From Candidatus Hermodarchaeota archaeon (GTDB lineage Archaea; Asgardarchaeota; Hermodarchaeia; Hermodarchaeales; Hermodarchaeaceae), in the NCBI GenBank assembly GCA_016840065.1, contig JAEOTB010000032.1:1-52849 (forward strand): a stretch of 52,849 bases of DNA. The letters are read 5' to 3'. Numbering within the stretch: the first letter of the stretch is position 1; the number at the start of each line of letters is the position of its first letter. Of this stretch, positions 21,048 to 52,849 are shown in pieces. A program made the position numbers and the translations under genes. The notes beneath the pieces were generated by a model. It was not told the DNA's origin, did not search any database, and saw nothing but the letters and a program-made list of their open reading frames with translations.

Positions 21048-22472
21048 ATGATAGATAAATTACAAACTTGTGTAACCTCTGGTGAGAAGCTAGGTGCCCA
21101 ATTCGTTGAGGCGCGGTTCGACAATCTCACCTTACGAACGCTTAACCGTACAAATGATGTCTGGAAGGATATCATCTTGCGGTCCCGAGCAGGTGTTGGC
21201 ATCACTTGTTATCATGATGGCGTTTCTGGATATTCCTTTACAGCTAGTACCTCTAAAGGAGATTTGGAGGAGGCAGCGAAGCGTGCTTTCAAGATGGCGA
21301 AATCCGCTTCACCTGCAGCCTCGTTAAAATTAGATTTTGATCGACGACCAGCAATTAAAAGCAAAGCCTCTGACACCTTCAGAGTAAAGGTTCACCCCAG
21401 AACCAAAGACCTAGAGTACAAGACTCAGCTAGTGAACCGGGCTATCGAGGCGGCTCGAGGAACCGGAAAAGAAATCCAAACCGTAATCAGCGCATATGGG
21501 GAGTTGTACGGTCAGAAACTCCTCACGAATAGTGATGGAGCAACCCTAGACTGGGAATTCTTAGTAGTTGACTTGTACTGTCGCGTTACCTCCAAGACAG
21601 ACGATGGTAACTTGGTGAATGGTGTTGAGCGTGCAAACGGGACCAAAGGAATGGAACTGTTTAGTACGAAGGGGTCCACACCTGAGGATGTTGGCAGAGC
21701 CGCTGGCGCAAACGCAACAGAACAGCTCAAGGCGAAAGCCTGCCCAGCAGGTGAATTTCGAGCTTTGGTAGAAAACAGGCTAGCTGGAGTGTTAGCACAC
21801 GAATCCTTTGGACACCTGAGTGAGGCAGATTTTATCGTAACAGGTATGTCCCCAATCTCTGGAAAAATCGGCGAACGCCTCGGAACAGAGCACGCCACGA
21901 TCATTGATGGAGGAACCCCTGATATCGCAAAGTATGGTGGCTTGTGGATTCCCTATGATGATCAAGGTACTCCAGCTAGTGAAACAGTAGTTCTCGACAA
22001 AGGAATTCTCAAGCACTACCTACATAATCGAGGAACCGCCAAATACCTAAAATCGAAGCCAACAGGTAACAGCCGAGCAGTGCACTACGCCTTTGTGCCT
22101 ATTCCACGAATGACTAATACCTATTTCAAGGCAGGCGATTTGACTGAAGAAGAAGCACTGGAAAACCTCGGAACAGGCGTCTACGCTATCCAAACCGCAG
22201 GCGGCCAAGTACAAGGCGACGGTAGTTTCTTGTTTAAAGCCATTCGCGGCTACTGGGTTGAAGGCGGCGAAATAAAATACCCGCTCAGAGAGGTCTCCCT
22301 ATCAGGGAATATCCTAGAATTCCTCAATAAAGTCGAAGGGTGTACAAAGGACCTGTTGTTAATGGGCGGCTATTTTGGGGGATGCGGTAAAGAGGGACAA
22401 GCTCCACTGCCCTGTGGGCTAGGTGGTCCCAAGATGGTAGTCGCGGATGTTAGATTTGGAGGAAAAGCATAA
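21048..22472 (+). CDS. tldD: TldD metalloprotease subunit
   Basis: LAHESFGHLSEAD (HExxGH), YDDQG, PRMTNT and GCGK.GQ motifs. Confidence 0.92.
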   Translation: MIDKLQTCVTSGEKLGAQFVEARFDNLTLRTLNRTNDVWKDIILRSRAGVGITCYHDGVSGYSFTASTSKGDLEEAAKRAFKMAKSASPAASLKLDFDRRPAIKSKASDTFRVKVHPRTKDLEYKTQLVNRAIEAARGTGKEIQTVISAYGELYGQKLLTNSDGATLDWEFLVVDLYCRVTSKTDDGNLVNGVERANGTKGMELFSTKGSTPEDVGRAAGANATEQLKAKACPAGEFRALVENRLAGVLAHESFGHLSEADFIVTGMSPISGKIGERLGTEHATIIDGGTPDIAKYGGLWIPYDDQGTPASETVVLDKGILKHYLHNRGTAKYLKSKPTGNSRAVHYAFVPIPRMTNTYFKAGDLTEEEALENLGTGVYAIQTAGGQVQGDGSFLFKAIRGYWVEGGEIKYPLREVSLSGNILEFLNKVEGCTKDLLLMGGYFGGCGKEGQAPLPCGLGGPKMVVADVRFGGKA

Positions 22473-48946: not shown

Positions 48947-51313
48947 TTATTTCGGTGGTGTACTGAATTCTCGCATGACATTTGCCATTTCTTGTAATCG
49001 TTTATCGGCTAATTTGTTGATTTCACTAGCTGGTCTTCCGGTTAGTAATTCAATCCCTTCATCGATTGTATCAACGGCGAAGATATGGAATTTACCCGCT
49101 TCCACTGCCTTTACAATTTCCTCCTTCAGCATGAGGTTCTGGATGTTTGCCTTGGGAATAAGAACTCCTTGGTCACCTGTTAGACCCGTTACCTTACATA
49201 CTGCGAAATAGCCCTCGATTTTCTCGTTGACCCCACCAATGGCTTGAATCTCACCATGTTGGTTGACCGAACCGGTTACTGCGAAGCGCTGCTGGATGGG
49301 TACACCAGACAAGGCAGAGAGGAGAGCGTATAGTTCAGTGCTGCTGGCGCTATCTCCTTCGACTCCTGAGTAGCTTTGCTCGAAGACAAGGCGAGCTGAA
49401 AGGCTTAGAGGTTTATCCCGCCCAAATTTCTCCGAGAGGTACCCGCTGAGTATGTGGACGCCTTTGTGATGAATACTACCACCTAATCCTGCTTCGCGTT
49501 CAATGTCGATAACGCGACCACGTCCAGGTGCTACACTTGCGGTAACCCGAGAAGGTCGCCCGAAAGCAAAGTCACCAAGAGAAAGGACAGAAAGGCCATT
49601 AATCTGACCAACTACCTCACCCTTCGTGGTGATGAGAATTACCTCTTTTTCTATGAGTTCGCGTATCTTCTCCTCCAACAAATTAGAGCGATAAAGGCGC
49701 GCCTCTAAAGCCTTAATGATGTGTTTTCGTTCGATGAGGCGTTTACGGTCTTCTTTAGCATAATGATTAGCCTCCCGTATGATGTCAGCGATGACACCGA
49801 AATGAACCGATAGTTTGGCCTGGTTCTCAGCAAGGCGAGAACTATAGTCAACAACTTCCGCAATAGCCTCTGCTGCTAGTTCACGTAATTCTTCCTTCTG
49901 TGTGAGAGACCGGATAAATTGGCAATAGAGGCGGATGTTCTTTTCAGTGCGATCCATGCTTGTATCAAAATCTGCTTTGACCTTGAAGAGCTCGCGGAAA
50001 TCTGGGTCCAGAATATAGAGTTGTTGATAAATGAAGGGATCACCTATTATGACCACCTTGATTTTAAGCGGAATCGATTCTGGACGCAAGGTTTTCATTG
50101 ATAGGAAACCGACCTGCTCCGCTGGCTCTTCAATGACGACATGATTATTTTGTAAGGCTCTCTTAAGAGCTGGGTAAGAAAGAGGTGAAGTGAGAAGCTC
50201 TCGAACGGGAACCACCAAGTAGCCACCATTCACCTTGTGAAGGGCTCCTGGACGAATCATTGAATAGTCCGTAAAGAGGGTTCCAAATCGCGGCTCTTTT
50301 TCAATACGACCAAAAAGGTTTGAATAAGTTGGATTAGTGATTATCATGACTGGAGCGCCTTCTTGTTCGGAGTTGTCAACAATGAGGTTCGCCTTGTACC
50401 GTTTTGAGAACTCCTCAGGAGAAATCCTCCTTGACTGTTGTTGAGGAGGAAGTGTAACATTGCCTTCTTGCCGCCCCATGAAAATACTGAGATTTTCTGT
50501 GATATCCTTGGCGATATCATGAATGAACTCGCTAACCTCGGGGTAATTAGTATACTCATCCAAGAAATCATCAATAATCGGATTCAGAGTAAAGCGTACA
50601 GCATCTTCCTCCATCTTTTTTAGCGCGGCTACAAGTTCACGCTCCAGAGTCTGAAGCGCCCTGAAAAGCTTACGTAGCTCAGTTTCAAGGACTTCGCGTC
50701 GGTTCTCAATGCTCTCCCTTTCCTCTGCAGACATCTTGGCTACTTGTGAGCGCTTTACCTCCTCACCCTCCACTACAGGAACAATGACAAGCCCAGTCTG
50801 CGTGCCTCGAAGAGCGAAACCTGCTTTTTGAGCCTTCTCCTGCATTTTCGTAAGAATATCATTCCGCACCCGCTCATACTGACTACGCCTATCCTCGCGT
50901 GAAGTTACAAACTCTTCACTTTCCAGCATCTTCGTAATCGAGTTCCGCGCAGCCTCAACGAAGTTGTCAAGGTCAACAACAAGAGCCTTACCCTTCCCCG
51001 CGGACAACATCAAAGCCCGAGGCTGATACGGGTCACTGAAATTTGACACATACAGAACATCAGACGGAACAGGCTCCTTAGAGGCGATCTCATTGAGATA
51101 CGTGGTAACAGCCGTCGTACGACCTGTACCATGCCCTCCACTAACATAGATGTTGAAACCATGGTCACTAATCTCCAAGCCAAAAGACAAAGCCTGCAAA
51201 GCCCGCTTCTGCCCCACAATATCCTTCAAAGGTGTGAAATCAGCACTTGATTTACATTTCAAACCCTTGACACTACACACAGCACGAAGTTGTTTAGGCG
51301 TGAGTTCCTTCAA
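48947..51313 (-). CDS. Lon-like protease, LonC/AAA_32 type
   Basis: GQKRA, long coiled-coil insert, PGALHKVNGGYL and VEGDSAS/GGVNEKIEG Ser-Lys dyad; no TM segment. Confidence 0.92.
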   Translation of the reverse strand: MKELTPKQLRAVCSVKGLKCKSSADFTPLKDIVGQKRALQALSFGLEISDHGFNIYVSGGHGTGRTTAVTTYLNEIASKEPVPSDVLYVSNFSDPYQPRALMLSAGKGKALVVDLDNFVEAARNSITKMLESEEFVTSREDRRSQYERVRNDILTKMQEKAQKAGFALRGTQTGLVIVPVVEGEEVKRSQVAKMSAEERESIENRREVLETELRKLFRALQTLERELVAALKKMEEDAVRFTLNPIIDDFLDEYTNYPEVSEFIHDIAKDITENLSIFMGRQEGNVTLPPQQQSRRISPEEFSKRYKANLIVDNSEQEGAPVMIITNPTYSNLFGRIEKEPRFGTLFTDYSMIRPGALHKVNGGYLVVPVRELLTSPLSYPALKRALQNNHVVIEEPAEQVGFLSMKTLRPESIPLKIKVVIIGDPFIYQQLYILDPDFRELFKVKADFDTSMDRTEKNIRLYCQFIRSLTQKEELRELAAEAIAEVVDYSSRLAENQAKLSVHFGVIADIIREANHYAKEDRKRLIERKHIIKALEARLYRSNLLEEKIRELIEKEVILITTKGEVVGQINGLSVLSLGDFAFGRPSRVTASVAPGRGRVIDIEREAGLGGSIHHKGVHILSGYLSEKFGRDKPLSLSARLVFEQSYSGVEGDSASSTELYALLSALSGVPIQQRFAVTGSVNQHGEIQAIGGVNEKIEGYFAVCKVTGLTGDQGVLIPKANIQNLMLKEEIVKAVEAGKFHIFAVDTIDEGIELLTGRPASEINKLADKRLQEMANVMREFSTPPK

Positions 51314-51478
51314 AATAACAACCCTCAGTTATAACTCGTCTATCAAGCTCTCCTAATTTTAAGCTTTACCAGAAGAATAACATTTCGAAAATACTAGTAT
51401 GAAAACACAAATCAGAAGAAAGAAAAGAAAAATTATACCAAACACAAAGCACCCCAAGAATTTGATAAAAGCAAAATC

Positions 51479-51486
51479 TCTTAAGG
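51479..51486 (+). promoter_or_regulatory. putative TATA box of hydrogenase gene
   Basis: GCAAAA-TC-TCTTAAGG ~55 bp upstream of ATG. Confidence 0.4.
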
Positions 51487-51538
51487 GCAAGAGAACAGAG
51501 GAAGGGCATTCTATGGAATCCTGTGTGGGAACCCCGCC

Positions 51539-52729
51539 ATGACGGAAAAAACATTAACAATCCCCCTTGGCCCACAGCACCCGGCCCTCAAAGAACCCGA
51601 AAGCTTCATGATCACCGTTGACGGCGAAATCGTAACCGACGTCGACTTCCGAATAGGATATGTTCACCGAGGCATCGAAAAAGCCTTCGAAAGCCGCAGC
51701 TACATCCAAAACATCTACCTGGCAGAACGAATCTGCGGCATCTGCAGCCAATCACACACCACCTGCTACATCCAGGCTGTCGAAGAACTACTCGACCTCG
51801 ACGTACCAAAACGCGGACTCTACATCCGAGGAATCGTAAACGAACTCAACCGCATCCACAGCCACATCCTCTGGCTCGGCGTAGCAGGCCACGAAATCGG
51901 ATGGGACACCCTCTTCCACTACTCCTGGCGAGACCGCGAACTCTGCATGGACATCATCGAAGAAATCACCGGCAACCGGGTCAACTACGCCAACAACATC
52001 ATAGGCGGAGTACGCCACGACATACCCAAAGACTGGCACCCAGGCATACACAAACGACTCGACAAAATCGAAGAACGAGTCGGCGCCTACGTCAAAACAA
52101 TACTCAACGAAAAAACCATCCTCGACCGCGCCCTCGGCGTCGGCATCCTCAAACCAGACATCGCCAAAAAACTCTGCGCCACAGGACCCACCATCCGAGC
52201 CAGCGGCATCCCCTGGGACGTCCGAGAAACCGAACCCAGAGTCCCCTACATCGGCGCACCCTGGAAAACCCAAACCAGCGACCTCTGCGACGTCGCAGGA
52301 CGAGTCATAGTACGAATGAACGAAACCATCGACTCCATCAAATGCATCCGCCAATGGCTCAAAAAACTACCCAAAGGCGACATCAAAATCCGAGCCCCAA
52401 GAAGAGTACCCGAAGGACAAGCCATCAGCCGATTCGAAGCCCCCCGAGGCGAAGTCGTCCACTACGTGGTATCCAACGGCACCGACAAACCCTACCGCCA
52501 CAAAGCCCGAGCACCAACACTAGCCAACATACCCTGCCTACCCAGCATGCTCATCGGCGGATACATTGCGGACTTGCCTATAGTTTTGGCTTCAATAGAC
52601 CCTTGTTTTAGTTGTACGGATAGAATAATAATTAAACATTCGGATAACCAAACAGAAGAGGTTAGTTGGGAGAAGTTTACGGCGCAGGCTCGTGAGCGGC
52701 GGTTTGCTGAGAAGACTTGGCGTCGTTAG
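51539..52729 (+). CDS. group 4 (energy-converting) [NiFe]-hydrogenase large subunit
   Basis: GPQHP.LKEP, GYVHRGIEK, L1 ERICGIC, EAPRGE and L2 DPCFSCTDR, followed by a C-terminal tail. Confidence 0.93.
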   Translation: MTEKTLTIPLGPQHPALKEPESFMITVDGEIVTDVDFRIGYVHRGIEKAFESRSYIQNIYLAERICGICSQSHTTCYIQAVEELLDLDVPKRGLYIRGIVNELNRIHSHILWLGVAGHEIGWDTLFHYSWRDRELCMDIIEEITGNRVNYANNIIGGVRHDIPKDWHPGIHKRLDKIEERVGAYVKTILNEKTILDRALGVGILKPDIAKKLCATGPTIRASGIPWDVRETEPRVPYIGAPWKTQTSDLCDVAGRVIVRMNETIDSIKCIRQWLKKLPKGDIKIRAPRRVPEGQAISRFEAPRGEVVHYVVSNGTDKPYRHKARAPTLANIPCLPSMLIGGYIADLPIVLASIDPCFSCTDRIIIKHSDNQTEEVSWEKFTAQARERRFAEKTWRR

Positions 52730-52748
52730 CTCGTTTGTTTTATTTGTT

Positions 52749-52786
52749 GGACAGGGTTTTCTCTGTCCTTTTTTCTTTCTTTTTTT
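52749..52786 (+). terminator. hairpin plus poly-T terminator downstream of the hydrogenase gene
   Basis: GGACAGGG-TTTT-CTCTGTCC stem-loop (one G-T pair) followed by TTTTTTCTTTCTTTTTTT. Confidence 0.65.
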
Positions 52787-52849
52787 ATGCAGTGGATTTT
52801 GGGAATGGGGGTTGTCGTTCCTTTTCTTTTGGTTGTGTTAGCCATTGCT

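Follow-up and report, generated by a model that had tools for sequence, protein, structure and literature searches.

The window, which is the whole of contig C4 (GenBank JAEOTB010000032.1, 52,849 nucleotides) of a Candidatus Hermodarchaeota archaeon (genome G000, an assembly 84% complete), carries near its right end the intact gene for the 396-aa large subunit of a group-4 (Ech/Mbh/NuoD-like) [NiFe]-hydrogenase (51539-52729, + strand), and inside this gene the silent sites switch from A/C to G/T. The gene was recognised by its orthologues, which occur throughout Asgard, and by NuoD/FpoD-like NCBIfam matches that are below the family cut-offs; both nickel-binding CxxC motifs of the protein are kept. 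On the opposite strand, to the left, lies a gene for a Lon-like protease (48947-51313), whose Walker A motif is atypical, with Arg replacing Lys.

A saturated switch at silent sites

Taking the G/T share as the fraction of codons that end in G or T, with expectations drawn from the codon usage of G000 itself, we counted third bases along the hydrogenase gene. The left arm (51779-52564, + strand) comprises 262 codons with third bases C162/A88/G12/T0, the twelve G endings being those of seven Trp and three Met codons, one CGG (51977) and one GTG (52466), and its Leu codons are CTC (17) and CTA (4) and no others. Among codons with a choice of ending, 2 of 252 ended in G/T, versus 118 expected (P ~2e-65). 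A mixed central zone follows (52565-52657, midpoint ~52611), in which 18 of 31 codons end in G/T, and then a right arm (52658-52849, + strand), in which all 24 codons to the end of the gene (52658-52729) end in G/T (21 of 21 optional codons versus 9.3 expected, P ~4e-8) and the tail downstream of the gene, as far as the contig end, has the composition T64/G29/C17/A10. The switch is real, and the counts given for it in a first-pass annotation of this DNA were exact: no T-ending codon, two optional G endings and only CTC or CTA for Leu on the left, uniform G/T endings and G/T-rich DNA beyond on the right. Its description of the centre as mixed held too, with the correction that the AT-rich tract there is not conserved in orthologues; comparison of the same orthologues revealed no synonymous conservation in this zone.

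Outwards, the left arm fades (50400-51538) through intergenic DNA that is A-rich, as had been reported (51314-51538, A96/C46/G36/T47), into the 5' part of the Lon-like gene, where the G/T share is 0.76 over the first 150 codons and drops to ~0.45 near 50.4 kb, which bears out the leftward weakening first described. Because this opposite-strand gene shows the mirror bias, the bias follows the DNA strand rather than the gene, and genome-wide the arms likewise flip by strand in + and - genes.

A chimeric assembly or a codon-usage artefact has a negligible probability in our assessment. The switch does lie near a contig end, and mapping across 52560-52660, which the first-pass annotation had proposed as a check, gave a divided result with Logan unitigs of run X2, possibly the source sample: both arms were matched with 0-1 differences, but among the unitigs listed none spans 52563-52577. 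Unitig depth in that run also drops by half near 52598-52615, a weak pointer to the insertion site described below. Against an artefact, the arms flip with strand as described above; moreover, the reading frame is continuous and homologous across the switch, consistently with the earlier statement that the protein is intact, and relatives that were assembled independently switch in the same way, so that a chimera was ruled out.

The orthologue comparison located the A/C arm in 15 other hermodarchaeal orthologues and near-neutral values outside the lineage. Codons 260-342 had a G/T share of 0.00-0.10 in 15 of 16 hermodarchaeal sequences (0.22 in the remaining one) and of 0.34-0.58 in six orthologues from other Asgard, and in most hermodarchaeal sequences the last long A/C run of the gene stops at codons 342-353. 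In another Asgard lineage (locus L136, on contig C5 of G020; relatives are labelled G001 onward), a paralogous hydrogenase operon likewise has A/C arms and a switch, which there falls elsewhere (codon ~130).

The same polarity recurs across the genome. Orientation-corrected change points in G000 ran from A/C to G/T in 14 cases, and in the reverse direction in none, at a threshold of >0.7, and in 37 versus 6 cases at >0.6, the hydrogenase locus being rank 6. About 40 foci of the same polarity were thus delineated, with 35 of 41 refined centres inside genes, on either strand; in their mean profile the G/T share steps from 0.26 to 0.76 and is at background again by ~1.5 kb. The search for similar foci with a shared central motif, suggested at the outset, therefore found the foci and not the motif: no k-mer is common to the centres (the best 7-mer, with P=2e-4 among ~8,000 tested, is not significant), and no inverted repeat or cruciform between the arms exceeds chance. 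That the centres are simply the most conserved motifs is only partly true, since the DPCxxC motif at the centre of the hydrogenase switch is at the 85th percentile of conservation within the large subunit and the G/T share jumps little or not at all at generic Walker A, CxxC and GxGxxG motifs. These data uphold the proposal of a strand-specific process that spreads from a fixed point and saturates silent sites, whatever the orientation of the gene.

A fixed insertion site with mobile elements in relatives

The switch is centred on a fixed insertion site, which lies at the codons for the nickel-binding motif DPCxxC (52598-52615, + strand), and the G/T-rich 3' end of the gene is an exchangeable module, two points that the first-pass annotation had missed. 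The module, which consists of the gene's 3' end and the G/T-rich tail (52604-52849, + strand), recurs as displaced copies of the last ~40 codons with a short tail: one on contig C15 of G000 (~21630-21823, minus strand), four in tandem between unrelated cargo genes on contig C119 of G001, and more in G003-G009, with up to five copies in relatives. In an alignment of eleven copies, drawn from seven genomes, each start falls on the first Cys of DPCxxC or no more than ~2 codons from it, an interval that corresponds to ~52601-52610 of the window, in the mixed zone, the putative site of endonuclease cutting and insertion. C15 probably continues the right arm beyond 52849, across a join that we infer; its order is tail, HEAT-repeat gene, displaced copy, GH3 gene (saturated, with the bias of the right arm) and NuoH, and a NuoH-like gene directly follows the large subunit in four non-hermodarchaeal loci.

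Only the short 3'-end module is repeated, a search with the last 400 bp of the A/C arm having returned no second copy of that part. A focus and a duplicated gene end also coincide at MTHFR (C69), at an inositol-phosphate synthase (C65) and at a gene on C51, and the DPCxxC motif of the group-3 hydrogenase likewise bears both a focus and a displaced copy. No Rfam family was found in three repeat-bearing loci. An integron, Xer-dif or tyrosine-recombinase cassette array was rejected, as G000, G002 and G003 (three of the four genomes of the genus) have no PF00589 match and the repeats here are protein-coding gene ends, not the palindromic att sites of integrons.

Other repeats and cargo were recorded alongside these. 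Between the displaced copies on C119 of G001 (L027) lie a PLD-domain (NgoFVII-like) nuclease gene and several open reading frames (ORFs) with no Pfam match, a content that suggests defence genes. A ~60-bp repeat on C88 (232-4346, L203) and C112 (10575-10637) of G000, in six copies with cargo ORFs between them, encodes a Cys-containing protein C-terminus; it probably represents a further set of displaced gene ends, with no host gene assembled alongside. A dispersed ~145-bp repeat family (80-87% identity, no Rfam match) is present on C60 (5281-5426, L031), C17, C27, C32, C69 and C110, one copy standing right of a focus.

In seven relatives (G004, G005, G006, G008, G012, G015 and G017), a convergent LAGLIDADG gene of 650-740 aa directly follows the hydrogenase gene. 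The C-terminal half of its product has, in a predicted model (pLDDT 86), the double-motif homing-endonuclease fold, with matches to I-Tsp061I (the best, E 1.7e-7), TliVMA, PI-SceI and I-DmoI; the motif-1 Asp is invariant in 18 sequences of the family and the motif-2 acidic pair is mostly kept. At the hydrogenase site these relatives thus carry a mobile element in which a replacement 3' end is combined with a double-motif LAGLIDADG gene and with cargo. It has the features of a C-terminus-replacing LAGLIDADG element: an adjacent ORF, in the relatives, with this fold and its acidic residues; a fixed insertion in a conserved coding motif with a replaced and a displaced gene end; and elements that group by site and occur patchily. 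In phylogenetic analysis the hydrogenase-site copies formed one clade (100/99), separate from paralogues in the same genomes, and the aglB copies another (100/99), while the two group-3 hydrogenase copies did not group. The element was not found at the hydrogenase site in G007, G011 and G003, and the ORF that follows the gene in G003 was rejected as a LAGLIDADG homologue on comparison.

Across a comparison set of 19 hermodarchaeal and 12 other Asgard genomes, the LAGLIDADG family was present in 15 of the former (up to nine matches per genome) and in none of the latter. Paralogues adjoin other genes that have foci in G000, namely the group-3 hydrogenase, MTHFR and aglB, and 4 of 15 host genes scored >0.5, versus a base rate of 3.3% (P=0.001, with the ascertained gene included). 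One LAGLIDADG protein encoded in an A/C arm consists to 46% of T/P/Q/H/K/N, a share that is 24% both for its paralogue and genome-wide; because this weakly constrained protein has shifted its amino acids, the bias is mutational.

Several further members of the family were observed. Upstream of aglB on C78 of G000 (112293-117717, L028), an element with a HerA-like ATPase gene and a LAGLIDADG gene lies inside a 5-kb A/C arm; a related pair is present on C51 of G001, and a LAGLIDADG 3' relic at C78:103938-104210. On the same contig (2822-4669, L029), a divergent gene with LAGLIDADG and helix-turn-helix (HTH) parts adjoins rps19; half of it is A/C-saturated on the + strand, and both motif Asp residues align with the family. 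On C32 of G006 (L085), a LAGLIDADG-family gene is immediately upstream of cdc6, the usual place of an origin.

Inteins provided a second set of endonuclease sites, with arms that reach right up to the intein junctions. The centres of several G000 foci are intein sites: atpA after the Walker A lysine, a DP2 motif, and resident inteins in MCM and ribonucleotide reductase (RNR), at which the A/C arms of the two genes stop. The VMA-b and MCM-a intein sites, at that Walker A position, are common to archaea (PMC10643990); such sites were therefore not chosen by a lineage-specific hotspot, and the causal arrow is likelier to run from endonuclease to skew. In DP2, the last 40 N-extein codons had a G/T share of 0.00-0.18 in eight hermodarchaeal intein alleles and the first 40 C-extein codons one of 0.92-0.95 in four; of the empty alleles, four of five hermodarchaeal ones jumped at the same codon and none of 12 from other lineages jumped by >0.15. 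In G029, a closed 2.81-Mb Asgard genome, atpA passes from 0.10 through a neutral intein (0.42-0.48, 1.6 kb) to 0.81, and MCM has saturated arms outside its inteins. At sites of intein-type motifs that had not been used in forming the homing idea, 5 of 10 showed a jump >0.2, compared with a background of 5%.

Two features of DP2 were noted besides. Several hermodarchaeal DP2 inteins (loci L162-L171) are A/C-saturated over an internal stretch, which may be a second target site lying within the intein or the sign of two adjacent inteins. G000 has two DP2 copies, on C93 and at C36:13107-14696 (90% protein and 82% DNA identity), which both jump at the intein site and possibly reflect bin contamination.

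Proposed cutting and repair, and alternative explanations

From these positional data we consider it quite likely that the foci are anchored on homing-endonuclease sites. The full mechanism that we favour, with a probability of roughly 0.63 and with a conjectural polymerase step, is that the switch is the scar of repeated LAGLIDADG homing-endonuclease cutting followed by error-prone resynthesis. The endonuclease would cut repeatedly at the hydrogenase DPCxxC site, and 5'-to-3' resection at the break would strip the + strand to the right of it and the - strand to its left, both of which would then be refilled, so that the newly made strand on each side would be the G/T-rich one. An error-prone fill-in polymerase may insert dG opposite T and dT opposite G (wobble misinsertion), causing A>G and C>T changes on the new strand, and many rounds of cutting, repair and homing could saturate silent sites over a resection range of 0.3-3 kb while selection preserves the protein. 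Insertions at the break would survive only if they brought a copy of the gene end, which could generate the arrays made up of cargo and displaced 3' ends. At nearly every distance A>G (a shift of 1.3-1.5 log-odds on the G/T strand) is stronger than C>T (0.75-0.85), and these equilibrium values fit polymerase error better than cytosine deamination; a Y-family polymerase is encoded in 16 of 19 hermodarchaeal genomes.

Several observations weigh against the cutting-and-repair mechanism. The Y-family polymerase is also present in lineages that lack strong foci, and NucS, which cleaves G:T mismatches, is present, a fact that likewise ruled out loss of NucS mismatch repair as the cause. At the hydrogenase site of G000 itself no endonuclease gene is assembled, C4 ends at 52849 with at least one unit unassembled between C4 and C15, and about 30 of the 41 foci have no assigned element. 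In a second hermodarchaeal genus the 3' end of the hydrogenase gene has nearly neutral values (mostly 0.33-0.67), with the G/T arm at its height 1-1.8 kb downstream, a pattern that simple decay from the cut does not predict. Inteins without arms exist (Hel308 in G000, atpA in G007 and G022, most inteins of G021), so the scar depends on lineage and history, and some DP2 inteins have the internal A/C stretch mentioned above. Finally, the hermodarchaeal relatives are kin and hence not independent samples.

Among the alternatives, chemical mutagenesis at the same endonuclease-defined sites, in which the G/T-rich strand is left single-stranded and, while repair is long delayed, undergoes deamination (C>T, A>G), is unlikely, although all the positional evidence (insertion site, inteins, LAGLIDADG neighbours) fits it too. 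In mitochondria, displaced single strands bear the signature C>T together with A>G, and here the G/T-rich strand might be exposed by 3'-to-5' trimming that leaves 5' overhangs or by nick-primed strand displacement. Ordinary 5'-to-3' resection, however, would expose the A/C-rich strand, so deamination of conventionally resected single strands would be expected to give the reverse polarity; moreover, cytosine deaminates much faster than adenine, whereas here the A>G shift is larger and further-reaching than C>T, a comparison of equilibria that is not decisive. Less probable again are fixed replication-initiation sites, some 40 per genome and maybe opened by domesticated LAGLIDADG-HTH proteins, where a low-fidelity leading-strand start would write the skew and inteins and elements would insert secondarily. 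The polarity of the foci and their independence of gene strand are shared with the keto/GC-skew inversions of bacterial oriC and archaeal origins marked by cdc6 and origin recognition boxes (ORB), the LAGLIDADG protein has an HTH and WhiA among its fold matches, and one focus lies within a cdc6-GINS-MCM cluster. The foci are nevertheless far stronger, more local and more numerous than origins and sit in conserved coding motifs with no k-mer in common; at the hydrogenase site the centre is coding, its AT tract is unconserved and a strict ORB-like pattern was unmatched nearby. Their decay by ~1.5 kb leaves no replichore-scale skew in the mean profile, the region upstream of cdc6 (C61) has no switch, and the nearby focus stops exactly at the MCM intein. 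The archaea-wide use of the VMA-b and MCM-a sites, the neutral 1.6-kb intein that divides the arms of atpA in G029 and the retained catalytic acidic residues of the LAGLIDADG proteins also speak against initiation. The interpretation in the first-pass annotation is therefore partly supported: its replication-initiation reading is not sustained, and it did well, in our judgement, to offer a localised strand-specific mutator as an alternative.

Least probable of these three, and quite improbable, is a recoding process like that of GRINS, in which skewed tracts of unexplained origin would spread by gene conversion, or selection would favour structure-free single strands, with endonucleases as passengers. 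GRINS share with the foci an intense skew, correlated between GC and TA, by which protein genes are recoded over tracts of similar size, and have been tied to gene conversion; their authors proposed that the daughter strand acquires C>T and A>G through error-prone synthesis (PMC8256042, 2021). GRINS, however, are repeats in paralogous polyketide synthase modules with no known anchor (PMC8256042), whereas the arms here are single-copy, centred on endonuclease sites and, over the 400 bp of the A/C arm searched, free of the high-identity repeats in paralogous regions, with only the 3'-end module repeated and no inverted repeat between the arms above chance; the alignment with intein junctions would also be left unexplained.

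The preferred explanation, a homing-endonuclease scar, has partial precedents. In fungal mitochondria, as described in the part of the source drawn on here (PMC3630166), endonuclease ORFs are associated with a duplicated C-terminus in Allomyces atp6 and in Glomus atp6, atp9, cox2 and nad3: a LAGLIDADG ORF in the 3' part of a conserved gene supplies a replacement C-terminus and the native end is displaced downstream. The elements described here differ from the ones in that part in their archaeal chromosomal setting, convergent endonuclease gene, cargo, up to five displaced copies and kilobase strand-asymmetric arms, no such skew being reported there. For yeast mitochondrial mobile introns, the available portion of Repar and Warnecke 2017 (PMC5378118) describes exonic change at homing sites, ascribed to error-prone repair or co-conversion over cycles of gain and loss; that footprint is a raised density of single-nucleotide polymorphisms within ~70 nt, with no strand-specific composition in the portion concerned, while the present one has a direction, mirrored in polarity, and reaches saturation over 0.3-3 kb. 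What is new against these precedents is a directional, saturating, kilobase-scale signature. Papers on Asgard skew deal with genome-scale patterns only (PMC11291895), and no published description of the phenomenon emerged from a literature search in which subscription journals were thinly covered.

Meaning for Asgard genomes

An extreme and hitherto unexplained compositional signal is tied here to a concrete cause that can be tested, and it is a warning not to take local skew inversions in Asgard genomes for origins. A broader proposition, to which we give about even odds, is that in Hermodarchaeota and some other Asgard double-strand break repair is so error-prone and strand-biased that homing targets become saturated, mirror-image scars of A/C against G/T; the ~40 foci would then map present and past targets and resection lengths, free-standing LAGLIDADG elements would swap gene ends there and gather cargo with no need of an integrase, and bacterial GRINS could have the same repair chemistry as their cause. 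The arms touch core markers (DP2, atpA, MCM, RpoB) and may shift amino-acid composition, which makes them relevant to Asgard phylogenomics. The finding puts forward a mechanism for skew of the GRINS type as well as a way in which cargo is gathered with no integrase, and, if true, it would allow cut sites, the lengths of repair tracts and the spectrum of errors in repair synthesis to be read from genome sequence alone in an uncultured lineage close to the eukaryotic root.

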